The notes beneath the pieces are model-generated. The model was not told the origin of the DNA. It did no database searches and saw only the letters and a program-made list of their open reading frames with translations. Position numbers and translations under genes: made by a program. Shown piece after piece: positions 3,780 through 49,943 of a stretch of DNA of 64,000 nucleotides (its first letter is position 1; the number at the start of each line of letters is the position of its first letter). Source of the stretch: Minisyncoccota bacterium (GTDB taxonomy: Bacteria; Patescibacteriota; Minisyncoccia; Phycocordibacterales; SBAW01); NCBI GenBank assembly GCA_035546615.1, contig DASZWM010000002.1, forward strand, positions 1 to 64,000, written 5' to 3'.

Positions 3780-4022
3780 ATGGACAAGAGTGTAACCATC
3801 TACAGCACACCGACCTGCCACTTCTGCCAGATGGCCAAGGAATTCTTCGCGGAGAAGGGCGTGCAGTACACCGCCTACGACGTCGCAAGCGACGCGGCAA
3901 AGCGCGCGGAGATGATACAGCTCACCGGCCAGCTCGGCGTCCCGGTCATCGTGATAAACGGCGAAGCGATGATCGGCTTCAGTCGCGACCGCCTCGCGCA
4001 GAAGTTGGGAATTGAGGCGTAA
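3780..4022 (+). CDS. Glutaredoxin-like protein (NrdH/Grx family)
   Basis: 80 aa with CHFC redox motif near the N-terminus (YSTPTCHFCQMAKEF) and a thioredoxin fold pattern. Confidence 0.75.
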   Translation: MDKSVTIYSTPTCHFCQMAKEFFAEKGVQYTAYDVASDAAKRAEMIQLTGQLGVPVIVINGEAMIGFSRDRLAQKLGIEA

Positions 4023-5359: not shown

Positions 5360-5758
5360 ATGGGCGATTTTCAACGTGCGGTCGTTGTTGGGCTCATTGA
5401 GTCCGCGGGCGAAGTACTCTTGGTGAAAAATTCCGAGGGAAATAGGCGGGATTGGCAGTTACCCGGAGGGGCTATCAATGAGGATGACAAACCCGCCATT
5501 TCTGCTTCGATGCGGATACTTCAGGAGACCGGACTCCATGTTCGGGCGGAGAAGCTACGGCTCGTCAAGTCTTTGGCACGCGATACCGACACCGCCAGGC
5601 AAACAGTGTATTTCTATCGTGCCGAATTGCCGGGCGGCGCCTTCGACCGATTGCCGTCAGTCGGTCCAAGCGGTCACGCGATTCGTCGGGAAAACCGCAA
5701 ACGTATAAATCACTTGCTTGGTCCACAAGACCTTCAACTGATGAAACATGTACGGTAA
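5360..5758 (+). CDS. NUDIX hydrolase
   Basis: Nudix box LPGGAINEDDKPAISASMRILQETGL, matching the GX5EX7REUXEEXGU pattern. Confidence 0.7.
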   Translation: MGDFQRAVVVGLIESAGEVLLVKNSEGNRRDWQLPGGAINEDDKPAISASMRILQETGLHVRAEKLRLVKSLARDTDTARQTVYFYRAELPGGAFDRLPSVGPSGHAIRRENRKRINHLLGPQDLQLMKHVR

Positions 5759-5809
5759 GTATTGCGCCGCCGGGAAACCTGGCGGCGCAATTTGTTTTTA
5801 TATAAACGC

Positions 5810-6310
5810 TTAGTTCGATCTGACCTTGAGCTTTGCCTGCCTGCCTTTGTCCATCTTAGGAAGCCTGATAACGAGAAGGCCGTGCTTCTCTACCGCTTCC
5901 GCCTCCTCTATCTCAACCTCCTGGGGAAGCACTATCGTGCGGCTGAAGGCGCCCCAATAGAGCTCCTGGAAGAAAAAGTCCCCGTTTGTGCCCTCGGCGT
6001 GGCGCTCGCGCTTGCCGCGAATAGTAACCATGTCGCGCGTTATAGAAACATCCAGGTCCTCGGGCCGTACGCCCGCTATCATGGCCTTAATGACGATATG
6101 GGTCGGGGTCTGGTAGACGTCCACCGAAAGCTCGCCTTCGGCTTCCTCTACGACATCCGCTTCCTCGCGCATAGGCGACAGGGGGCGCTTCTCGGCGCCG
6201 CGGCTTACGGGAACGCCCGCGCCCTGGTCAAGGTCGTCAAAAGAGTATTCGGTATCCGCGCCGGCCGAGCCGGTGAGCCAATCAAAGAGGGATTTTTTGT
6301 CGCGTGCCAT
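5810..6310 (-). CDS. Hsp20/alpha-crystallin family small heat-shock protein
   Basis: 166 aa. The alpha-crystallin domain signature (DVYQTPTHIVIKAMIAGVRPEDLDVSI...GLLVIRLPK) is typical of IbpA/Hsp20. Confidence 0.85.
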   Translation of the reverse strand: MARDKKSLFDWLTGSAGADTEYSFDDLDQGAGVPVSRGAEKRPLSPMREEADVVEEAEGELSVDVYQTPTHIVIKAMIAGVRPEDLDVSITRDMVTIRGKRERHAEGTNGDFFFQELYWGAFSRTIVLPQEVEIEEAEAVEKHGLLVIRLPKMDKGRQAKLKVRSN

Positions 6311-7040: not shown

Positions 7041-9191
7041 TTATACCGTCTCTTTTGCGGGCCACGCCTCGACCATCAACAAGTCTTTCGTATTCGGCAT
7101 GGAAGACCAGATCTCCTCGGTTACGAACGGCATGAACGGATGCATGCCTTTCAGCAGCACTTCTAGCGCCTGCAGCAAAGCGGCCGCGCGGGATTTCGCG
7201 CGCGCAGCGTCGGGGCCTTTCAAAAGCGGCTTGCTCTCCTCCAGTATGGCGTCCGCAAAGCGGTGCCATATGAATTGGTACATTGTATCGGCTGCCAGGT
7301 CGAGCCGGAACGAGTCTATGTGCGTTGCCGCCTCTTGCGCGGCCCCGCGCGCTTCCTCCACGATCGCCTCGTCCTCAGGCGCGAGGGTAGCATCCGAGTC
7401 CGCTCCGGCTGCCTGCCCGCTTTCAAGGACGAAGCGTGCAATATTCCATATCTTGTTTGCAAAATTCTTATACCCGCGTATGCGGTCTTCCGACAGCTTC
7501 AGGTCGTTGCCGGGAGCGGCGCCGACGATAAGCGAAAGGCGCACGGCGTCGGCGCCGTATTTCTCTATCATGTCCAGCGGGTCGATGATATTGCCGAGGC
7601 TCTTGCTCATCTTGCGGCCTTTCTCGTCGCGCACGAGGCCGTGCAGGTACACGCGCTGGAAGGGCACGGTATCAAGCAGGAAGCCGCTCATGAGTATCAT
7701 GCGCGCGACCCAGAAGAAGAGGATGTCGTAGCCGGTTTCGAGAACCGAAGTAGGATGATAGGTCCTCATGTCAGCCGTCTCCTCGGGCCAGCCGAGCGTG
7801 GAGAACGTCCAGAGGCCCGAAGAGAACCAGGTGTCGAGCGTATCGGAGTCCTGCTCCCAGCCCTCGCCGGGGGATTCCGCGCTGATGCGAATTTCCTCGC
7901 CCTTGTACCAGGCGGGGACGCGGTGGCCGAACCATATCTGCCTTGAGATGCACCAGTCGCGCAGGTTGTCTATCCAATGGTAATAGATCTTCTCGAAGTG
8001 GTCGGGGGTGATAGTGATGTTCTTGCTTTCAACCGCCTTGCGCATAATCTCCTTGAGCGTCGTCTGCTTGCTGTCGCGTTCGAACTCCTTGTTCACGGCG
8101 ACGAACCACTGCTTCATTATCTGCGGCTCGATGACCGCCTCGGTGCGCTCGGCCGTGGCGACATTATGCACGTAGTCCTCATCCACTTTGACGAGCAGGC
8201 CCTTTTCGCGCATTTTCTCGACTATTTTCTCGCGCGCTTCGGCTATCTTGAGCCCCGCGAACTCGCCCGCGATAGGGAGCAGCTTGCCGTACTTGTCGAT
8301 GACCTGCTCCTTGTTGAGCTTGTGGCGCTCGGCTATCTCGAAGTCGATGCCGCTGTGCCAGGGCGTTATCGTCATGACGCCGGTGCCGAACTCCGGATTC
8401 GCCGCCGCGTCTTTGATGACGGTGGCGGTAATGGGTCCGTTTATCCATTCCACTTCCAGCGTATCGCCGTGCTTATACTGCGCATAGCGCGCGTCATCCG
8501 GATGCATCACCACATACTTGTCGCCGAACTTCGTCTCCGGCCGCGCGGTGCCGATGGTGAAGGGGCCGTAGGTGAAGTAGTAGAATTTCGATTTTTCCTC
8601 CCGATATACTATTTCGTCGTCCGAAATCACCGTCTGGCCCTTCGGGTCCCAGTTCACGATGCGCTCGCCCTGGTAGATGAGCCCGGCCTTATGCATGCGG
8701 ATGAACGCCTCGTTCACCGCGCGGCGGCGGGAATCGTCGAGCGTATAGGCCTCGCGGCTCCAGTCTACCGATGCGCCCATGCGGCGCACCTGGTTCACAA
8801 TGGTGTCGTGGCTGGCCTGCGCGAACTCCTCGACGCGCTTGAGGAAGGTTTCGCGGCCGAGGTCATGGCGGTTCACGCCTTCTTTCTTCTGGATCTCCTT
8901 TTCGACCTTTGACTGCGTGGCTATTGCCGCATGGTCGGTACCGGGAACCCACAGGGTCTTAAGCCCGCGCATGCGCGCGAAGCGCACGAGGATATCCTCA
9001 ACCGCGAGCATCGCGGCGTGGCCCAGGTGGAGCGTGCCGGTGACGTTGGGCGGGGGAAGGACAATGGAAAATGACTCCGTGCGCTCGCCGGGAAGATTGT
9101 CCGGGTTGAAATAGCCGGAATCCTCCCACTTTTTGTAGATGTCCGTCTCGACCGCCTTGTGGTCGTATGGCTTGAGGAATTTGCTGTCCAT
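7041..9191 (-). CDS. valS: Valine--tRNA ligase (compact form lacking the C-terminal coiled coil)
   Basis: Class I HIGH motif (PPNVTGTLHLGHA), KMSKS motif (KMSKSLGN), and the WCISRQ and DTLDTWFSS motifs typical of ValRS. Length 716 aa. Confidence 0.85.
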   Translation of the reverse strand: MDSKFLKPYDHKAVETDIYKKWEDSGYFNPDNLPGERTESFSIVLPPPNVTGTLHLGHAAMLAVEDILVRFARMRGLKTLWVPGTDHAAIATQSKVEKEIQKKEGVNRHDLGRETFLKRVEEFAQASHDTIVNQVRRMGASVDWSREAYTLDDSRRRAVNEAFIRMHKAGLIYQGERIVNWDPKGQTVISDDEIVYREEKSKFYYFTYGPFTIGTARPETKFGDKYVVMHPDDARYAQYKHGDTLEVEWINGPITATVIKDAAANPEFGTGVMTITPWHSGIDFEIAERHKLNKEQVIDKYGKLLPIAGEFAGLKIAEAREKIVEKMREKGLLVKVDEDYVHNVATAERTEAVIEPQIMKQWFVAVNKEFERDSKQTTLKEIMRKAVESKNITITPDHFEKIYYHWIDNLRDWCISRQIWFGHRVPAWYKGEEIRISAESPGEGWEQDSDTLDTWFSSGLWTFSTLGWPEETADMRTYHPTSVLETGYDILFFWVARMILMSGFLLDTVPFQRVYLHGLVRDEKGRKMSKSLGNIIDPLDMIEKYGADAVRLSLIVGAAPGNDLKLSEDRIRGYKNFANKIWNIARFVLESGQAAGADSDATLAPEDEAIVEEARGAAQEAATHIDSFRLDLAADTMYQFIWHRFADAILEESKPLLKGPDAARAKSRAAALLQALEVLLKGMHPFMPFVTEEIWSSMPNTKDLLMVEAWPAKETV

Positions 9192-9820: not shown

Positions 9821-10915
9821 CTATTTTACTATCGACAATTGACCCTCCGCCCTGAAGTCTTCCTTTGTTGCGTCATCAAGGCCGTTTAAGCGCCTTGCGA
9901 GCGCGGCTTCGGCTATCATTATCGCGTTGTCACCGGTTATGGAGAGCTCCGGCAGCCGGAATTCGGCGTATGAAAAGTCTTTTTCGATAAGCTTTTGCAG
10001 CTGGCTCCGCAGATGGGCGTTCGCCGCGACCCCGCCGCCGATGACGAACGTCTTGGCACCCGTTTGTTCCATCGCGCGGGCCGTTTTCTTAAGCAGTATC
10101 TCCGTTACAGCATCCTCGAACTCGCGCGCAAAATCCGCTATTTGTTCGGCCGAAAGCGTTTGTATGCCGCCCATGTCGCGCAGGGCGTAAAGCGCGGCAG
10201 TCTTAAGGCCGGAGAAAGAGACGTCGCAAGTGTCCGCCTGAAGCATGGGACGGGGAAGCGAGACAACGCTTTTTTTTCGCGAGGTTTCACCTCGCGAAAA
10301 ACTGGCAAGCCGGGAGATTTCCGGACCGCCGGGGTAGGCGAGGCCGAGCATGCGCGCAACCTTATCGAACGCTTCGCCAACGGCGTCGTCGAGCGTCTCG
10401 CCGATAATTTCATACTTGAACCACTCGCGCATGAGCACGAACTCAGTGTGCCCGCCGGATATCAAAAGCCCTAGGACGGGGAACTGCACATTCTTAATTT
10501 CCATCATTTTAGCTTTTTGCAAAAAGCTAAAATGATTGCTTCCTGTTTGTGCAAGGGAAGAGATAAGATGCCCCTCCATATGGTTGGTCGGCAGGAGCGG
10601 CAGATTTTTATCAGCCGCGAGCTTCTTGGCGAATTCGATGCCGGTCCAGAGCGCTGGCTCAAGCCCCGGGCCCTGAGTTACCGCGATAGCGTTCGCTTCT
10701 TCATCCTTAAACTGCTCAAATAGCACGGGCAGGTTCTTCTGGTGCTCGCGCTTGGCGAGATTGGGGTAGACCCCGCCATACTCGGCGTGTAATTGGGCTT
10801 GCGAAAGGAGAGCGTGCTTAAGCACGCTAAATGCGAATCCACCGGCGGTCTTTTCTCCTTCAACTAAGGCAATACCCGTCTCGTCGCAGGAGGTTTCTAT
10901 AGCGAGGATTTTCAT
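9821..10915 (-). CDS. tsaD: tRNA N6-adenosine threonylcarbamoyltransferase TsaD (Kae1/YgjD)
   Basis: Aligns along its whole length with TsaD: MKILAIETSCDETG, HMEGHL, SGGHTEF, FSGLKT and GGGVAAN motifs. Contains an in-frame insertion of about 15 aa encoded by a palindromic repeat (see findings). Confidence 0.9.
   Translation of the reverse strand: MKILAIETSCDETGIALVEGEKTAGGFAFSVLKHALLSQAQLHAEYGGVYPNLAKREHQKNLPVLFEQFKDEEANAIAVTQGPGLEPALWTGIEFAKKLAADKNLPLLPTNHMEGHLISSLAQTGSNHFSFLQKAKMMEIKNVQFPVLGLLISGGHTEFVLMREWFKYEIIGETLDDAVGEAFDKVARMLGLAYPGGPEISRLASFSRGETSRKKSVVSLPRPMLQADTCDVSFSGLKTAALYALRDMGGIQTLSAEQIADFAREFEDAVTEILLKKTARAMEQTGAKTFVIGGGVAANAHLRSQLQKLIEKDFSYAEFRLPELSITGDNAIMIAEAALARRLNGLDDATKEDFRAEGQLSIVK
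10505..10534. repeat. Perfect 30-nt palindrome CATTTTAGCTTTTTG|CAAAAAGCTAAAATG (core of a 45-nt repeat, copy 1)
   Basis: Perfect inverted repeat inside the tsaD coding sequence. Near-identical copy at 30632..30661. Confidence 0.7.
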
Positions 10916-11051
10916 AGTCTTTTTGTGTCACAAATATTTCTTCGCCGTCGCTCAGAAATTTTGCGACCCCGGCTCGCGGTTTTGCAATTGCAAAACATCG
11001 CTGCGCCCCGCACCAGGTGCAAAAACTGCCGCAGGGCAGATTTTGCGTCTC
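10916..11051 (-). repeat. tRNA-Val trailer element (family A, copy 3)
   Basis: In tRNA sense: GAGACGCAAAAT, then hairpin CTGCC/GGCAG plus T-run, then GTGCGGGGCGCAGCGATG, hairpin TTTTGCAATTGCAAAA, CCGCGAGCCGGGGTCGC, hairpin GTCGC/GCGAC, GGCGAAGAAATATTTGTGAC, then the tsaD ATG. Homologous to 39607..39760 and 49790..49943. Confidence 0.45.
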
Positions 11052-11127
11052 TGGTGCGCGGTGAGGGATTCGAACCCCCGACATCGTCAACGTCAATGAC
11101 GCGCTCTACCAACTGAGCTAACCGCGC
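11052..11127 (-). tRNA. tRNA-Val (anticodon GAC), CCA encoded
   Basis: Reverse complement gives GCGCGGT-TA-GCTCAGTTGGTAGAGC-G-CGTCA-TTGACGT-TGACG-ATGTC-GGGGG-TTCGAAT-CCCTC-ACCGCGC-A-CCA. Confidence 0.8.
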
Positions 11128-11812
11128 GATTCCGTATTACCTTCTGGCAATACAATTGATAAAGATACAATAAATCCCGTTGTATTGCCACATCGTAATA
11201 TGAAACTATGCATACTCCTTTATAGGAATTACGTGATTTCTTCCCGATGGTCCTTTTGTCAAAATAAACACCTTTGAACTGATCTTGTGGAATTGCGAGC
11301 GCTGCGCACCAGTACTTGATTATTTCCGAAGGTCTCTGATCCGCCCGTATATGCACTTCGCACCGCATCCTTTTAAGATCTATCCTGTACGAAAGGCATA
11401 AGGCGCTTATAAAAAAGTTCAATATGTTGGGATCAGCATTTCCTAACACCAAGCCTTTCTCTCGTTTCGTTCCTTCTCCCCAATACAGCATCGCCAAAGC
11501 AAGCTTAAGTATCTCCTTATCTTTGTAGCCAATCCGCTGGATCGTTCTTTCCGCCCGGGTTTTCGCTGCTTCTATGCGCTGCATTTTTTGTTGAGTATGC
11601 CGAAGAGCAGCCTTTTCACGGGCAAGAATAAGGGCGTTTTTCCTACTTCGTTCGAGCCTGTCGCGATAGGTAGGCGGAAGTTCCACATTTCTAAGCCACC
11701 CGCTAAGAGTAGAGCGCGGGATTTGAAGTGCCTCTTCTATATTCCTAATGGAAGCTCCTTTGATTCTCAGGCGAACAGCCTTGTCCCGCAAACCAGAAAA
11801 ACGAGATGTCAT
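11093..11812 (-). CDS. HTH plus LAGLIDADG-like (homing endonuclease-like) protein, paralog of 4079..4711
   Basis: Internal Met of ORF 11093..11938. HTH-like segment IRNIEEALQIPRSTLSGWL and variant motif LAMLYWGEGTKREKGLVL. Collinear similarity to the 4079..4711 product. Lower GC. The 3' end overlaps the 5' end of tRNA-Val by about 35 nt. Confidence 0.4.
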   Translation of the reverse strand: MTSRFSGLRDKAVRLRIKGASIRNIEEALQIPRSTLSGWLRNVELPPTYRDRLERSRKNALILAREKAALRHTQQKMQRIEAAKTRAERTIQRIGYKDKEILKLALAMLYWGEGTKREKGLVLGNADPNILNFFISALCLSYRIDLKRMRCEVHIRADQRPSEIIKYWCAALAIPQDQFKGVYFDKRTIGKKSRNSYKGVCIVSYYDVAIQRDLLYLYQLYCQKVIRNRAVSSVGRARH

Positions 11813-11828
11813 ATTATCCAGTGTACAC

Positions 11829-12116
11829 TCAATGGTTCCAAGACTCAATCCTTTTTTGCTTATCTTCTCCCCAGCGCCACCGCGCAGGCTCGCCCCGTTT
11901 GTAACATATCCAGAAAAGCAGGCCGGTAGTAACCGCAATATACGGTATCAACAATAAAATTCCCCATACGTTGCCGCTCGTTACGATGAGATGCACGAGC
12001 AAGAGCGCTCCGGCGATAAAAGATAGCATCCACAAGAGCATCACCAAGAACCCTTCCTTCGTAGCGGGGTACCAGCCATATCCGTACTGCTTCGCCTTGA
12101 ACCAGTATTTTTCCAT
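11829..12116 (-). CDS. Hypothetical small membrane protein
   Basis: Internal Met ([23 protein letters not shown]...) of ORF 11829..12191. Two predicted TM helices. Starts 5 nt downstream of tRNA-Ser. Confidence 0.35.
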
Positions 12117-25724: not shown

Positions 25725-28208
25725 ATGGCTGACGACGAAACAAAGAAAGACCCCAAAGACGGCCGCACTGACGGCGGCACCGGCATAGTCGGGCGCAACA
25801 TCTCCACCGAGATGCGCGAGAGCTTCATCGACTACGCGATGTCGGTCATTACCGACCGCGCGCTTCCTGATGTGCGCGACGGATTGAAGCCCGTGCACCG
25901 CCGCATCCTCTACACCATGCATCGCCTGGGGCTCACGCCTTCGGCGCGCTTCCGCAAGTCGGCGCTCGTGGTGGGCGACGTGCTCGGCAAATACCATCCG
26001 CACGGCGACGCGTCCGTATACGACGCGATGGTAAAAATGGCGCAGGAGTTCTCCATGCGCTATCCGCTCGTGCTCGGCCAGGGCAACTTTGGTTCCGTGG
26101 ACGGCGACTCGGCCGCCGCCATGCGCTACACCGAAGCGAAGATGTCCCGCATGGCGGAGCAGCTCCTCGGCGATATCGAAAAGGAAACTATCGACTGGCG
26201 CCCCAACTACGACGGCAGCCTCAAGGAGCCGGTGGTGCTTCCGGCCGCGGTGCCCAACATTTTGCTTAACGGCACGCTCGGCATCGCTGTGGGTATGGCC
26301 ACCTCTATCCCGCCGCACAACCTCACCGAGCTCTCAAACGCGCTCGTGCACCTTATTGAGAATCCCGAGGCGACGGTAGAGGACCTCATGCAGTTCGTCA
26401 CCGGCCCCGACTTCCCAACAGGTGCGCTCGTATTTAATAAGAAGGACCTGCTCCACGCGTACACCACCGGCAAGGGCGGCGTGGTTACCCGCGGCGTTGC
26501 CGAAATTGTGGAGGGCAAGAAGGGCGACTATCAGATAGTCATTACCTCCATACCGTACCGCGTGAACAAGGCCGACATGATAATGCGCGTAGCCGACCTC
26601 GTGCACGAGAAGAAGCTCGAGGGCATCCGCGGCCTGCGCGACGAGTCCACCAAGGACATCCGCATCGTAGTAGACCTGAAGCAGGGCGCGCATCCGCAGA
26701 AGGTGCTCAACTACCTCTACAAGCACACGGCGCTCGAGGACACGTTCCACTTCAACATGGTCGTGCTCGTGGACGGCGTGCCCCAGACCCTGTCGCTGAA
26801 GGGGATACTGCAGGAATTCATCAAGCACCGCCAGGACGTCGTGCGCCGCCGCACGCAGTACGACCTTACGCAGGCGCAGGCCCGCGAGCATATATTGCTC
26901 GGCCTCAAGAAGGCGCTCGACCATATCGACGAGATAATCAAGCTCATCCGCGCATCCCGGGACGTGGCCGACGCACACGCAAACCTGATGAAGAAGTTCA
27001 AGTTCTCCGAACTGCAGGCGACCGCCATTCTTGAAATGCGCCTCCAGAAGCTCGCCAACCTCGAGCGCAAGAAGATAGAGGACGAATTGAAAGAGGTTCA
27101 GGCCCTTATCGAAGAGCTCACGAGCCTGCTGAAGAGCGAAAAGAAGATGATGACGGTCATCCGCGGCGAAATAGAGGACATCAACAAGAAATACGGCGAC
27201 GAGCGCAACACCAAGGTGGTAAAGGGCGCGGCAGGCGTCATTAACGTCGAGGACCTCGTGCCCGACGAGGAGCAAGTGCTCGTGCTCACCCAGGGCGGCT
27301 ATGTAAAGCGCACCAACCCCGACGAGTTCCGCAAGCAAAAGCGCGGCGGCGTGGGCGTCATCGACCTCGATACCAAGGAGGAGGACTTCGTAACGAACTT
27401 CCTCACGACCTCGACGCACTCGGACCTGCTCTTTTTCACCAACGCGGGCAAGGCGTACCAGCTGAAGTTCTACGAGATCCCCGAAGGCAAGCGCTCCACC
27501 AAGGGCCGCCCTATTGTGAACTTCCTCTCCGTTACCCCCGAAGAGCGCGTTACCTCGGTGCTCCCTATGCGCAAGAACCAGAAGGAGGGCGAGAAATTCC
27601 TCTACATGATAACCAAGCAGGGCGTCGTGAAGAAATGCGACGCGACTGCCTTCCACGATGTGCGCCGCTCCGGCCTCATCGCGCAGAAGCTCCAGAAGAA
27701 CGACGAGCTCATCGCGGCACTCTTGGTGGAGAAGGGCGATGAAATATTCCTTTCGACCGCCAAGGGGCAGTCTATCCGCTTCAAGGAGTCCGACGTGCGC
27801 CCGATGGGCCGCGCGGCCGGAGGCGTGCGCGGCATGAAGCTCAGCGGCGGCGATACCATCGTGGGTGCCGATGTGGTTAAGAAGGGAGTAAAGAACCAGG
27901 AAGTGCTCGTCATTTCACGCAACGGCTACGGCAAGACGACCGCGACCGAAGAATATAAGAACCAGAACCGCGGCGGCTCCGGCATCAAGACCATGAATAT
28001 GACCCCCAAGACCGGCCCGCTTATCGCTGCGCGCATCATCACCAAGGAAGATGGCGTGGGTGAGGACGAGATCGTGGTCATATCTAAAAAAGGCCAGGTC
28101 ATCCGCACCGAGCTTAAGGAGATCCCCAGCCTTTCCCGCAGCACGCAGGGCGTACGCGTTATGAAGCTCCGCGAAGGCGATGCGATAGCAAGCTTCGTTT
28201 GTCTATAG
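25725..28208 (+). CDS. gyrA: DNA gyrase subunit A
   Basis: Active-site region AMRYTEAKM (catalytic Tyr), QRDR-like [16 protein letters not shown], and the C-terminal beta-pinwheel repeats. 827 aa. Confidence 0.95.
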
Positions 28209-28211
28209 GAT

Positions 28212-28805
28212 ATGGATACTACCACTCAGGCGTATCTTGAAATTCTGGAGAAAACAAATCAGCAATTAAGTCTTTGGTATAACCCATATGGTCTAATGGT
28301 GGCAGTATTGACTGGCCTAGTAGCGGCACTTGCAATTGTTTTTGCTTTTATTTTATGGAGACAGCAGAAAGAATATAAAGATGCTTTTAAAGATTTTCTC
28401 GCTGAACGTAAAAAGTTCGCCAATAGTGAGATAGCAAAGGCAATAGTAGAAGCCGGAAAAGTGCTTGACGATAAAATTATAGAAGCGGACAAACAACTCA
28501 AAGATATAAAAGACTCAAGTAGCAAAACAAAAAAAGACATTGAGAAGGAAATTCAAGAACTCAAAAAGTCCAGAGAATCTTTGCAGTCAGGTAGTGCGAT
28601 TTTTCGTAGTGGAGGTGTGAGCGGCCCAATATATGGCACCGCTGCGAGTTCTATTTTGGGAGTAGCTTCTGGCGCGAATAGTACAACCGTTTGGGATCCA
28701 ACTTCTAGTGTATTTAGTGCTGTTGGTAAAATATGTGGTTTTTGTGGAACTCAGAATTATCCTGGCGCACAATTCTGTTTCTCTTGTGGGAACCCCCTTG
28801 GATAA
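28212..28805 (+). CDS. Membrane-anchored protein with C-terminal zinc ribbon
   Basis: One TM helix, a K/E-rich coiled coil, and a C-terminal CGFCGTQNYPGAQFCFSCG double-CxxC motif. About 38% GC versus about 60% in flanking gyrA. Confidence 0.5.
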   Translation: MDTTTQAYLEILEKTNQQLSLWYNPYGLMVAVLTGLVAALAIVFAFILWRQQKEYKDAFKDFLAERKKFANSEIAKAIVEAGKVLDDKIIEADKQLKDIKDSSSKTKKDIEKEIQELKKSRESLQSGSAIFRSGGVSGPIYGTAASSILGVASGANSTTVWDPTSSVFSAVGKICGFCGTQNYPGAQFCFSCGNPLG

Positions 28806-28842
28806 AAAGTTCTTGTCTTCCTAGAAAGAATCTAATCACTAT

Positions 28843-29817
28843 ATGAAAATAAAGATTGAAGAATTGCGGCAATTAATGGTTAAAATTCTTGCGGGCAAGT
28901 ATTACTCGCAGGAGGAGGCAGAAAAGATTGCCGAAGTTTTTCTTTATGCTGAATTGTCCGGTAAAAATACACAAGGAGTTCTTAAACTTCTTGGTTCTGA
29001 GCCGGCTCAAAATATACAGCCCAAGTATCTTCCTAAGATTATAAAAGAGACAAAAGTATCTGCGCTTGTAGACGGAGGCGGAGCGGCCGGACCTTTGGCA
29101 GCTCAATTTGCACTAGATAAGGCGATTTCATTGGCTAAAGAGACTGGAGTAGGAATTGTGGGTTTAAACAATACTTTTTCTAGCGTAGGAGTTATGGGAT
29201 TTTATGCTCGCAAGATGGCCCAAGCAAATCTGATAAGTATTGTGAGTGCAAGTTCACCCAGAGCAATTGTTCCTGCGGGAGGTATTGAGCCAGCTTTTGG
29301 CACAAACCCCATAGCATTTGGTTTCCCTACAGAAGAATATCCAATCGTTTTTGATATGGCGTCTTCGGCTATCACTTGGTATGGGCTTGTTCGTGCAAAA
29401 GCCCTTGGTCAAAAGCTACCCGAAAATGTCGCGATTGATAAAGAAGGAAACATAACAACTGATCCTGAGGCGGCAATGGCTGGAGCTATTTTACCTTTTG
29501 ATCGCTCTTACAAAGGTTCTGGGCTGGCTATGGTCGTTGAACTCTTAGCGGGAGCTTTTACAGGTGCATCGGTTGTATTTGACGAAGGTGACTGGGGAAC
29601 TTCCTTTATTGCCTTTAGTCCCGATCTTGTTATTGGCACTGAGCAATTCAAGAAAAAGTCCTCAGAGCTGGTAAAGAAAGTAAAAGCAGGCAAAACCAAA
29701 GCAGGAGAGAGCATACATATCGCCGGTTATGACAGCGAGGCAAAGCTAAAAGAGATCAATGATTCAGGAGAGATAGAGATTGAAGATAAAATTCTCGATC
29801 AACTAAAGACTTTGTAA
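28843..29817 (+). CDS. Malate/L-lactate dehydrogenase family 2 (Ldh_2) oxidoreductase
   Basis: Collinear with the Ldh_2 family (sulfolactate/ureidoglycolate dehydrogenase-like), for example GVLKLLGSEP...GGGAAGPLA...GFPTEEYPIVFDMASSA. Low GC. Confidence 0.65.
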   Translation: MKIKIEELRQLMVKILAGKYYSQEEAEKIAEVFLYAELSGKNTQGVLKLLGSEPAQNIQPKYLPKIIKETKVSALVDGGGAAGPLAAQFALDKAISLAKETGVGIVGLNNTFSSVGVMGFYARKMAQANLISIVSASSPRAIVPAGGIEPAFGTNPIAFGFPTEEYPIVFDMASSAITWYGLVRAKALGQKLPENVAIDKEGNITTDPEAAMAGAILPFDRSYKGSGLAMVVELLAGAFTGASVVFDEGDWGTSFIAFSPDLVIGTEQFKKKSSELVKKVKAGKTKAGESIHIAGYDSEAKLKEINDSGEIEIEDKILDQLKTL

Positions 29818-29824
29818 TAAGAAT

Positions 29825-30364
29825 ATGAAATTTGGGAACTTGAAATTTGCGCCTGCCATTGAACACCCAGAACTTTTGGCTGCTCCTGTTGCTAGTGCAC
29901 TTACGAGTTTGTCCATCGCTGATGTTGGTGTCGCAGAAATCGACCCAGCTCTCTCCGACACCGCAGCATTTTGCGAGAAGTACGCCGTTGTGCCTGCCCA
30001 GGCTGCTAATTGTGTAGTGCTTAAGTACAAAAAAGGCGAAGAGTCGGCCTTTGTCGCATGCGTGATTTTGGCAACCACTCGTGCTGATGTGAACGGCCTG
30101 GTGCGCAAGGTACTCGACATCAAAAAGATTTCTTTTGCGCCCATGGAGGAAGCCGTGGCAGGAAGCTCGATGGAATTTGGAGCAATAACTCCTATCGGTT
30201 TACCAGCTAATTGGCCAATTTTAATAGACAAAGCCGTTGTCGATTCTCCTGGGGTTATAATCGGGAGCGGAATTCGCAAATCTAAATTAGGTTTACCGGG
30301 CAGAGTTCTTGCTTCACTGCCGAACATACAAATACTTGAAGGGCTAGGTCAGGTAAAGACATAA
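29825..30364 (+). CDS. YbaK/ProX-type aminoacyl-tRNA deacylase domain protein
   Basis: About 180 aa with the YbaK-like pattern (ANCVVLKYKK...FVACVILATTRADVN...GAITPIGLP). Confidence 0.55.
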   Translation: MKFGNLKFAPAIEHPELLAAPVASALTSLSIADVGVAEIDPALSDTAAFCEKYAVVPAQAANCVVLKYKKGEESAFVACVILATTRADVNGLVRKVLDIKKISFAPMEEAVAGSSMEFGAITPIGLPANWPILIDKAVVDSPGVIIGSGIRKSKLGLPGRVLASLPNIQILEGLGQVKT

Positions 30365-30371
30365 TAAATAT

Positions 30372-30626
30372 ATGAGCAAAGGAGATACAGTACCGCCAGT
30401 TCCTTCGGACGCTCCTCAGGTAGGAGAGGTCTTTAAGCATTACAAAGGGGACCCATACCGCGTCGTAGCGCTCGCGCTCCATTCCAACGACGACGAGTGG
30501 ATGGTGGTGTACGAGCCCATATACGAAAATCCGGCCGCGCCCATGTTTACCCGGCCGGTTCGGGAGTGGGGAGAGGAAGTAGAGTGGGAAGGCAAAAAAG
30601 TGAAGCGCTTTCAAAAAACAGCTTAA
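30372..30626 (+). CDS. DUF1653-family protein
   Basis: FKHYKGDPYRVVALALHSNDDEWMVVYEP matches the conserved DUF1653 core. Confidence 0.55.
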   Translation: MSKGDTVPPVPSDAPQVGEVFKHYKGDPYRVVALALHSNDDEWMVVYEPIYENPAAPMFTRPVREWGEEVEWEGKKVKRFQKTA

Positions 30627-30631
30627 TTCTT

Positions 30632-30661
30632 TATTTTAGCTTTTTGCAAAAAACTAAAATG
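30632..30661. repeat. Near-palindromic 30-nt repeat TATTTTAGCTTTTTGCAAAAAACTAAAATG (copy 2 of 45-nt repeat)
   Basis: Differs from 10505..10534 by two positions. The shared left flank CTTAATT extends the repeat to about 45 nt (30622..30663). Its terminal ATG is the HAD gene start codon. Confidence 0.7.
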
Positions 30662-31063
30662 AAAAAGACCGTCATCTTCGACATGTACGGCGTGCTGGTG
30701 CGCCGGAACTTTTTCATAAACGAGGAGGAAGATACGGAGATGGTCGCGCTTGTGCGGGAGCTTAAAGAAAGGGGAACTCAGCTTCTGCTACTTTCCAATA
30801 TCTATATATGGAACTCGGCGCACTTCAAAAGGAAGTACCGCTTTTTGGAGCTGTTCGACAGGCTCTACTTCTCTTCCGACACTCACTTTTCCAAGCCCGA
30901 CCCGGCGGCATTCCGAATGGTGCTTGAGGAAAATAACCTAAGCTCCGAAGACTGCGTCTTTTTTGACGACACAAAGGCCAATGTAGAAGGGGCGAAAGCC
31001 CTCGGCATAGAAGCGTATGTGTTTGAAGGCCCGGATGCGACAAGAAAAGCATTGGGTATGTAG
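30659..31063 (+). CDS. HAD-superfamily hydrolase
   Basis: Internal Met of ORF 30497..31063. Motif I VIFDMYGVL (DxD variant), motif II LSN, motif IV FFDDTKANVEGA. Confidence 0.6.
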   Translation: MKKTVIFDMYGVLVRRNFFINEEEDTEMVALVRELKERGTQLLLLSNIYIWNSAHFKRKYRFLELFDRLYFSSDTHFSKPDPAAFRMVLEENNLSSEDCVFFDDTKANVEGAKALGIEAYVFEGPDATRKALGM

Positions 31064-47428: not shown

Positions 47429-47609
47429 ATCGGTCAGGAATAAAGTGTTCGCCGTCGCGAATACTTTTTCACGACCCTGCCTCGCTCCCGCATCTGGTGA
47501 TGCGGGGCCCGCTCCGGCTTGCGAATCCTCACGCAAGGTATCCCATACCTTGCTCCCGCGCAGCACATAACGCAAAAAGTCCTAGCAAGAGCTAAGACTT
47601 TTTGACGTT
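47429..47609 (-). repeat. tRNA-Tyr trailer element bounded by a 15-nt direct repeat of the tRNA 3' end
   Basis: gtgcgccggggagga at 47414..47428 repeats 47610..47624, the tRNA-Tyr 3' end including the discriminator. Between the copies, in tRNA sense: terminator hairpin AGTCTTAGC/GCTAGGACT plus T-run, hairpin CAAGGTAT-ggg-ATACCTTG, GGATTCGCAAGCCGGAGCGGGCC, hairpin CCGCATC/GATGCGG, GGAGCGAGGCAGGGTCGTG, TCGCGACGGCGAA. Confidence 0.45.
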
Positions 47610-49789: not shown

Positions 49790-49943
49790 CAAAAGACGCA
49801 AAATGCAACCTTCGTTGCTTTTTGTGCGTTGCGGGAGACGGAGCGATGCCGCGCAATGGCGCGGCCGCGAGTCGGGGTCGCGAAAATTTTTTGCGACGGC
49901 AAAAAGTTATTTGTGACCGCTCAAAAATTTTTTTGCGAGCCGC
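49790..49943 (+). repeat. tRNA-Trp trailer element (family A, copy 2)
   Basis: CAAAAGACGCAAAAT, hairpin GCAAC-cttc-GTTGC plus TTTTTG, TGCGTTGCGGGAGACGGAGCGATG, hairpin CCGCGC-aatg-GCGCGG, CCGCGAGTCGGGGTCGCG, hairpin GTCGCGAAAA..TTTTGCGAC, GGCAAAAAGTTATTTGTGACCGC. Overlaps the 3' end of convergent miaA. Confidence 0.45.

Follow-up and report, generated by a model that had tools for sequence, protein, structure and literature searches.

The stretch of DNA studied here, called the window in what follows, comprises 64,000 nucleotides of a Minisyncoccota bacterium of the Patescibacteria (contig DASZWM010000002.1, assembly GCA_035546615.1), and it carries two copies of a 30-nt palindrome. By its protein matches the source, a metagenome-assembled genome, stands near Adlerbacteria and Paceibacteria. 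One copy lies inside the gene tsaD and the other fills the spacer between a DUF1653 gene and the gene of a HAD-family hydrolase (Table 1). The palindrome belongs to a family that is dispersed over the Patescibacteria and is probably the recognition site of a small winged-helix protein, next to whose own gene other members of the family stand.

Table 1 Position and setting of the two palindrome copies and of the genes that carry or adjoin them in the window (palindrome types are defined in the text; ORF, open reading frame).
Feature	Coordinates	Strand	Setting	Sequence or match
Palindrome copy 1	10505-10534		in frame in tsaD	perfect 30-nt palindrome, TTGCAA centre (type B)
Palindrome copy 2	30632-30661		DUF1653-HAD spacer	TATTTTAGCTTTTTGCAAAAAACTAAAATG
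tsaD	9821..10915	minus	host gene of copy 1	364-aa ORF, 100% identical to a database protein named TsaD
DUF1653 gene	30372-30626	plus		Pfam PF07866, E 1e-18
HAD-family hydrolase gene	30659-31063	plus	predicted ATG is the end of copy 2	Pfam PF00702, E 1.3e-15; PF13419

Copy 1 has the sequence CATTTTAGCTTTTTGCAAAAAGCTAAAATG, with the arms CATTTTAGCTTTTTG and CAAAAAGCTAAAATG, and the complementarity around it reaches 10501-10538, where it is imperfect (18/19 pairs). Copy 2 is identical to copy 1 at 28/30 bases, the two mismatches leaving 13/15 arm pairs; it begins 5 nt past the DUF1653 stop, and the HAD start codon at 30659 is formed by its final three bases. The form of the palindrome in the window can be written CATTTTAGC...GCTAAAATG. 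In the 64 kb only these two stretches match the 30-mer at three mismatches or fewer, the number expected by chance being 0.00 (100 dinucleotide-preserving shuffles of the window), and a general repeat finder recovered the same pair. The repeat has a G+C content of about 27%, against about 58% for the window. No sigma-70-type promoter and no terminator was called at either copy, the arms offering nothing beyond hexamers that resemble a -10 element. A further stretch of low G+C content (28000-30600, 0.44 versus about 0.58), containing genes for Ldh_2, a YbaK-type tRNA-editing domain and DUF1653, lies directly upstream of copy 2.

The initial annotation had placed both copies correctly and had recognised the perfect 30-nt core; the ORF layout and the Pfam matches also bear out its location of copy 1 in frame between the HMEGHL and GGHTEF motifs of TsaD, and of copy 2 between the DUF1653 stop and the HAD gene, to which it supplies the ATG. 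Its 45-nt repeat unit has to be shortened. The unit is 30 nt long. The CTTAATT found upstream of both copies is shifted by 2 nt from one to the other and is absent from the family consensus, and the flanks are unconserved across about 200 copies; its presence at both window copies is probably a coincidence.

In TsaD, copy 1 is translated as HFSFLQKAKM (H128-FSFLQKAK-M137), and these ten residues stand between the HMEGHL and SGGHTE segments; in the structure they come after the metal-binding HMEGH helix (112-121) and before the beta-strands leading up to SGGHT. The AlphaFold2 model of the protein has a mean pLDDT of 91.3, with values of only 72 and 77 for the blocks 121-130 and 131-140, and residues 125-135 are coil, so that the insert occupies a loop of lowered confidence; the initial annotation had proposed a check for a surface loop. 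An alignment of 120 TsaD homologues showed the insert to be variable between lineages, as had been supposed: many of the proteins have the canonical spacing and many others carry 10-14 additional residues at that point, examples of the inserted peptides being HSNILQNVRM, HSHILQNVRM, HSGILQNTRI, HTNKLENVGM and HSSFLQKAV. On the TsaD tree the insert is patchy, with at least 25 state changes over the 120 tips. Its frequency depends on the query, 49/120 of the top matches having it when the query bears the insert and 20/119 when the query is insert-free; a first estimate, by which the insert is present in half of TsaDs, came out too high because the query itself bore the insert, and was dropped. 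Insertion at independent positions within the loop looked likely at first and is not claimed here, because the loop alignment is ambiguous by 1-3 codons.

The insert peptides back-translate to palindromes, in which CAT for H pairs with ATG for M, TTG for L with CAA for Q, ATT for I with AAT for N, and TTT for F with AAA for K, among others. This was followed at the nucleotide level in other loci of the collection (stretches of 8-21 kb, numbered with the prefix L). The tsaD palindromes have the arms CATTCTCACATTCTA and CAGAATGTGAGAATG in L001, CATTCTAGCTTTTTG and CAAAAAGCTAGAATG in L142, and CATTCTGGTATTCTG and CAGAATACCAGAATA in L003, the last with the compensatory pair ..GGT../..ACC..; L116 and L118 hold further variants, the copy of L004 is decayed (12/15 pairs), and the tsaD of L192 (P0006) has an empty site. 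What is conserved at the TsaD site is thus the palindrome, whose two arms change together. An orthologue with the same insert and no nucleotide palindrome would have spoken for coincidence in the initial annotation; the outcome was the opposite, the inserts carrying palindromes with compensatory changes. The palindrome of L001, whose TsaD is 85% identical to that of the window, differs at 11/30 positions and has a type-A centre, while that of L142, whose TsaD is just 70% identical, agrees at 28/30. The tsaD copy therefore follows the resident palindrome type of the genome and not its host gene, a match that could have arisen by replacement, re-insertion or co-evolution.

A second palindrome is present in tsaD at 10273-10301. 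It is G+C-rich, 29 nt long (TTTTTCGCGAGGTTTCACCTCGCGAAAAA), has an RNA fold of -21.3 kcal/mol (z -5.3), and sits in a second variable TsaD loop (GGPEIS..LPRPML) of 26 to 73 residues in the homologues. The peptides PRVSRIAILSSQNSLGPDHL, SPSPAKGGVGV and PLADLQG recur in this loop, which may hold other repeat elements inserted in frame. Just upstream of tsaD, the minus strand carries a 281-aa ORF (11093-11938) that overlaps the 3' part of a tRNA-Val gene; it has no Pfam family and only a weak, sub-threshold helix-turn-helix match.

The repeat is not a two-copy peculiarity of its source genome. A scan of one genome per species (185,579 species) with the degenerate pattern CATTYTNNNWTTYTRCARAAWNNNARAAT returned at least 118 stretches, about 95 of them palindromic (13 or more of 15 pairs) among the matches listed. 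Nearly all of the palindromic matches listed lay on Patescibacteria contigs, with names such as Saccharibacteria, Paceibacterota, Kaiser-, Lipton-, Nomura-, Harrison-, Moran-, Sung-, Wolfe-, Giovannoni-, Taylor-, Jorgensen- and Adlerbacteria. The most frequent sequence among the matches listed, CATTCTAACATTCTGCAGAATGTTAGAATG, is identical in many species. A metagenome scan with the 20-nt window-type centre TAGYTTTTTGCAAAAARCTA alone gave 69 stretches, the majority flanked symmetrically by YATTYT/ARAATR, and the exact 30-mer of the window recurred on a metagenome contig (L126:3474), at the start of a type-B regulator gene. The genome and metagenome scans together bring the family to more than 200 copies, almost all in Patescibacteria and scattered at roughly one per 20-30 kb. 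Its members end in [C/T]ATT[C/T]T ... A[G/A]AAT[G/A], and the central TGCA, itself palindromic, is nearly invariant. Palindromes of the same build (e.g. CATTCTGCTTTTTTGCAAAAAAGCAGAATG) were also seen at the predicted start of large ORFs on four high-G+C contigs, L074, L092, L093 and L094, from bins named Thermoguttaceae, Phycisphaerae, Acidobacteriota and Planctomycetota; either these contigs are mis-binned or the family extends past Patescibacteria. A phage origin was considered and rejected, since 2.9 million viral contigs gave just five matches, each on one strand and most likely due to chance. Literature searches with the core sequence, the insert peptide HSNILQNVRM and Patescibacteria or candidate phyla radiation (CPR) terms found no description of the family; most subscription-journal papers lie outside the coverage of these searches, and a prior description is possible.

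Palindromes can arise as chimeras of assembly or amplification, and several copies are near contig ends (L026, L104, L138, L148). However, chance predicts no copy at all in the window, the copies are internal and in frame, and they come from independent assemblies (NCBI, JGI, ENA and Logan). Coincidence or artefact, which would retain a negligible probability, is refuted because the palindromes recur across these independent data sets.

We examined which genes accompany the palindromes. Clustering of the ORFs within 1.5 kb of them gave a single strongly recurrent neighbour, a protein of about 88 aa found at 29 loci and assigned to the Pfam family HTH_5 (ArsR family, E 3e-8); no transposase appeared in this clustering. 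Among 143 long neighbouring ORFs, which matched 187 Pfam families, no family was hit more than three times, and none of the 25 commonest families listed was a transposase. At several loci two palindromes stand 290-450 nt apart with the small gene between them, and such a bracket is present in about a third of the loci. An RNA gene between the paired palindromes was considered as well; Rfam gave one unrelated tRNA in ten loci, and the interval is a protein gene. The bracket has a fixed geometry, seen at about 30 loci from genomes and about 20 from metagenomes: the end of one palindrome either lies some 25-40 nt upstream of the regulator's start or overlaps it, and the other palindrome overlaps the stop. 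At L122 (4241-4719) the pair brackets a different small gene that, judged from its sequence, resembles a stand-alone winged-helix domain of the OmpR/PhoB type.

Among the 1.84 billion representatives searched, the regulator family comprises 165 clusters at 50% identity (E <=1e-10); at 90% identity there are 931 clusters, mostly 70-83% identical to the query and bearing generic names only. The structural model of the regulator (pLDDT 93.8) has the layout a1-a2-a3-a4-wing-a5 and superimposes on MexR, MepR, CadC, HlyU and SmtB with TM values of 0.7-0.85 (Foldseek), and the best solved relative by sequence in the PDB is an ArsR-family protein (E 0.004). The partner is a protein of the ArsR/MarR structural class, in a family without a characterised member.

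The regulator and the palindrome vary together. Three subtypes were distinguished by the motif of the recognition helix: NFKTISQHTR in subtype A goes with the palindrome centre CTGCAG (37/41 matches), GYxNASDHIRK in subtype B with TTGCAA (36/37), and KTAS[ED]HIRR in subtype C with CTCAAG/CTTGAG (3/3). The way in which the palindrome meets the end of the gene differs between them. In type A the gene ends ..ACA TTC TAA (T F stop) within CATTCTAA. The type-B palindrome, translated in frame 1 over its full length, gives the regulator C-terminus I/VLAFCKKLE, and that of type C encodes ..FLRILE of the regulator. The contig L137 shares synteny with the window to either side of copy 2, DUF1653 included, and carries two paralogous type-B regulator genes (5520-5857 and 7699-8046) 2 kb apart, each with its own palindrome variant (AACGTTTTGCAAAA.. 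versus AGTTTTTTGCAAAAAACT), and a decayed copy at 3912. These regulator-palindrome units lie a few kb downstream of DUF1653, and downstream of DUF1653 the window and L137 differ.

A winged-helix protein that reads the palindrome is likely because of the fixed bracket, the match between subtype and centre, and a contig in which each of two paralogous units has a variant of its own; the near-invariant, palindromic TGCA fits recognition of duplex DNA by a dimer. We propose that the 30-bp palindrome is the recognition site of this small dimeric protein (about 88 aa, ArsR/MarR fold), conserved across Patescibacteria. The protein would control its own gene, as the copy upstream of or overlapping the regulator start codon suggests. 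The same site would be dispersed as a miniature palindromic element; its copies are scattered over intergenic regions of every kind and also stand in frame where conserved proteins have loops, new ones being made perhaps by a hairpin or template-switch route. In the window, the TsaD loop that leads from the HxxxH helix to the SGGHT strands would tolerate ten extra residues, and the other copy fills the DUF1653-HAD spacer and supplies the HAD ATG. We give this explanation, built on sequence comparisons and models, a probability of roughly 0.6. The initial annotation had offered two readings of the repeat, as a miniature palindromic insertion that its host gene accommodates in frame or as a palindrome bound by protein and recruited in two contexts; the dispersed family and the co-variation of regulator subtype and centre support both of them together.

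The insertion of the element into coding sequence is not confined to tsaD. A 30-nt unit amounts to ten codons and is stop-free in two of the three reading frames, and the in-frame copies in real genes mostly read H-S-x-I/F-L-Q-N/K-x-R-M. In YchF the palindrome stands in frame at the same site in two genomes (L043 3478-4560, ..LEKHSHILQNVGMSGL..; L069 3609-4646, ..DKKHSHILQNVRISEL..), and further hosts are a HemK-like methyltransferase (L097), a FemAB-like protein (L085) and several others, the frame used being almost always the one that gives HS.ILQN.RM.

Several observations weigh against this explanation, or show that it is incomplete. The regulator gene itself was not found in the 64-kb window by tblastn and hidden Markov model searches. 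The link between protein and palindrome consists of adjacency and co-variation, both partly confounded by shared descent and by the collection of loci through a pattern scan. The intergenic copies are tandem in 74 cases, convergent in 31 and divergent in 24, roughly the split that indifference would give and with no preference for divergent regions or the promoter side (crude gene calls), and the downstream genes are heterogeneous, 63 of them being singletons. A conserved regulon was tried as an explanation and is not supported; the copies look instead like those of a miniature element that has dispersed and that its protein holds to one type. Comparison of filled and empty TsaD sites showed no target-site duplication. 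The frequency of the insert in close TsaD homologues, 17-41%, is above what simple tolerance would give, and this enrichment may reflect selection or targeting instead.

The same enrichment favours a different account of the tsaD copy, as a selected intragenic operator or internal promoter at which a bound protein blocks or starts transcription and so tunes tsaD, or the downstream valS, to a signal. The copy has not drifted with its gene, since it keeps 28/30 bases in common with the other window copy and is identical to the regulator-flanking copy of L126, and the recurrent use of one YchF site in two genomes points the same way. Read from the sequence, type A has CAGAAT to the right of its centre, at positions -12..-7 relative to the ATG at the end, and GTTAGAAT is similar to an extended -10 element. 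On the other hand, no sigma-70-type promoter is predicted at the tsaD site, and many lineages have decayed copies (HSSFLQKAV..; L004) or none (L192, P0002), as would be expected of a dispensable passenger. We regard such a selected operator as unlikely.

The symmetry of the arms was examined on two triplets left free by the scan pattern. They are fully complementary in 71/104 copies, compared with 18.7 by shuffling (maximum 31, 2000 shuffles), and 10 distinct types of complementary triplets occur. Two features go beyond what the proposed binding site would account for: the palindromy runs at least 3 nt past the 30-nt core in 75/209 copies versus 10 expected, and the copies within one genome differ from each other while each is perfectly symmetric (four in L008, five in L071). 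Because half-site reading by a homodimer leaves this symmetric variation within genomes and the symmetry in the flanks unexplained, an extra process is needed, and the data point to hairpin formation or template-switch correction of quasi-palindromes.

Compensatory changes that maintain the symmetry past the core would also be expected of an RNA hairpin, which could sequester start codons (those of HAD and of the L126 regulator) or stabilise or process mRNAs, the DNA-binding protein being incidental. Copy 1 folds at -16.2 kcal/mol (z -4.15), and of 88 downstream genes about 20 have the final ATG of the palindrome as their predicted start, as HAD does in the window. Yet the fold of copy 2 is weak (-7.0 kcal/mol, z -2.06), the palindromes are found in either orientation with respect to genes as well as in convergent intergenic regions, and TGCA, which would form the loop, is the part that hardly varies and is palindromic, suggesting recognition as double-stranded DNA. 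The palindromes are not terminators either, because few of the outward flanks are T-rich (6 or more T in 8 bases in 47/418, 11%); an intrinsic terminator was rejected on this ground, on the A+T-rich stems and on the finding of no predicted terminator at either window copy. An RNA role of this kind seems improbable to us.

The spacing of the copies along the genomes, their indifference to the type of intergenic region and their presence inside genes would suit sites that organise the chromosome, like parS, matS or Noc sites, to which the winged-helix protein would bind and whose placement would take no account of genes, hence also inside conserved ones. The copies are clustered around the gene of the protein in L071 (5 copies in 3.3 kb) and L008 (4 copies in about 3.5 kb), and their sequence is strongly conserved across classes. 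But the known systems fit their sites into existing codons and do not add ten codons, and no ParA/ParB-like gene recurs near the palindromes. We attribute a low probability to this function.

Returning to the dispersed recognition site, a bolder version of it can be put forward only tentatively, and we hold it for possible at less than even odds. Protein and palindrome would form a Patescibacteria-wide system of an undescribed kind, in which the winged-helix protein and its 30-bp site propagate together by a transposase-free hairpin or template-switch copying that keeps the symmetry. The sites written in frame into universal genes such as tsaD and ychF would then be places within genes at which the protein binds, in the service of global regulation or of the organisation of the chromosome, and would not be passive scars.

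A large share of bacterial diversity falls within the Patescibacteria, whose proteins are noted for insertions that lack an explanation. To our knowledge very little has been learned of their gene regulation and genome dynamics, and very few of their regulators are characterised. One recurrent class of the insertions, HS.ILQN.RM or HFSFLQKAKM, is explained here as translated copies of a DNA palindrome. The link of this palindrome with a specific and highly conserved small DNA-binding protein provides a directly testable protein-site pair, and annotators gain a marker for spurious 'insertions' and mis-called start codons. The family also offers a case in which the multiplication of a binding site without a transposase, and its invasion of essential genes, can be studied.

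Other repeats were noticed in the window next to tRNA genes. One family (10927-11044, 39619-39737 and 49820-49918) lies directly 3' of the Val, Lys and Trp tRNA genes, and a second (39814-39900 and 47470-47556) directly 3' of the Cys and Tyr tRNA genes. The members of both are 85-118 nt long and 71-78% identical and have no Rfam match; they could be conserved tRNA trailers or a structured RNA of a new kind.

Among known systems, yeast mitochondria contain mobile GC clusters and 'byp' elements, short palindromes that insert in protein-coding genes and give presence/absence polymorphisms. The present family resembles them as a short palindromic insert of coding genes that is present or absent. 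These elements are organellar and G+C-rich and some are bypassed in translation, whereas the family described here is A+T-rich in a genome of 58% G+C; nothing in it suggests bypassing, and the reading frame stays open.

Palindromic repeats that lie in frame in protein-coding genes and are tolerated as extra peptide segments at permissive sites were found in Rickettsia. The term Rickettsia palindromic elements is used for them in PMC1779305 and PMC10969869. In-frame insertion at permissive sites, here of the TsaD, YchF, HemK-like and FemAB-like proteins, is common to both. The Rickettsia elements are about 100-150 bp long, restricted to Rickettsia and without a known partner protein, unlike the 30-bp, regulator-tied palindromes of many Patescibacteria lineages, so that unit length and host set the two apart.

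The closest likeness in genomic layout is with the repetitive extragenic palindromic sequences (REPs) and REPINs of Enterobacteria and Pseudomonas and their REP-associated tyrosine transposases (RAYTs). Both are short (20-40 bp) dispersed palindromes, mostly extragenic, with variants that differ between genomes, and in both a gene is bracketed by two copies, as the RAYT gene is by REPs. REPs are described as carrying a GTAG or CGTC tetranucleotide tag at one end (PMC3733652), whereas the family has the ends CATTCT..AGAATG and lacks either tag. The bracketed gene encodes a small winged-helix protein without a catalytic domain and not a Y1 (HUH) transposase, the copy number is far lower (probably tens per genome), and copies are also found in frame inside essential genes. 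A MITE (miniature inverted-repeat transposable element) would have terminal inverted repeats around a non-coding core; here the whole unit is a single palindrome enclosing no unrelated DNA, the TsaD sites have no target-site duplication, and no insertion sequence was found nearby. With no transposase among the commonest neighbours, we find it very improbable that the palindromes are ordinary REPs or REPINs mobilised by a RAYT, or MITEs derived from an insertion sequence.

As for regulatory systems, the CIRCE element is a near-perfect inverted repeat conserved across phyla that works as a DNA operator and an mRNA hairpin, and the operon of its repressor, HrcA, carries it. The likeness lies in the pairing of a conserved palindrome with a conserved repressor-type protein whose own gene has the element. 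CIRCE, however, stands upstream of the genes of a small and coherent heat-shock regulon, in contrast to the heterogeneous neighbours and the convergent and coding copies of the present family. With the ArsR/SmtB and MarR repressors, the partner shares the fold, a palindromic site that adjoins or overlaps its own gene, and the predicted dimeric reading of symmetric half-sites. A site at the regulator's own gene whose sequence co-varies with the regulator subtype, as an operator would have, is what was found for all three subtypes. The protein differs from these repressors in that neither residues for sensing a metal or ligand nor an additional domain are evident in it; its 30-bp site is multiplied genome-wide, overlaps the stop of its own gene, and in types B and C encodes the C-terminus of the regulator itself.

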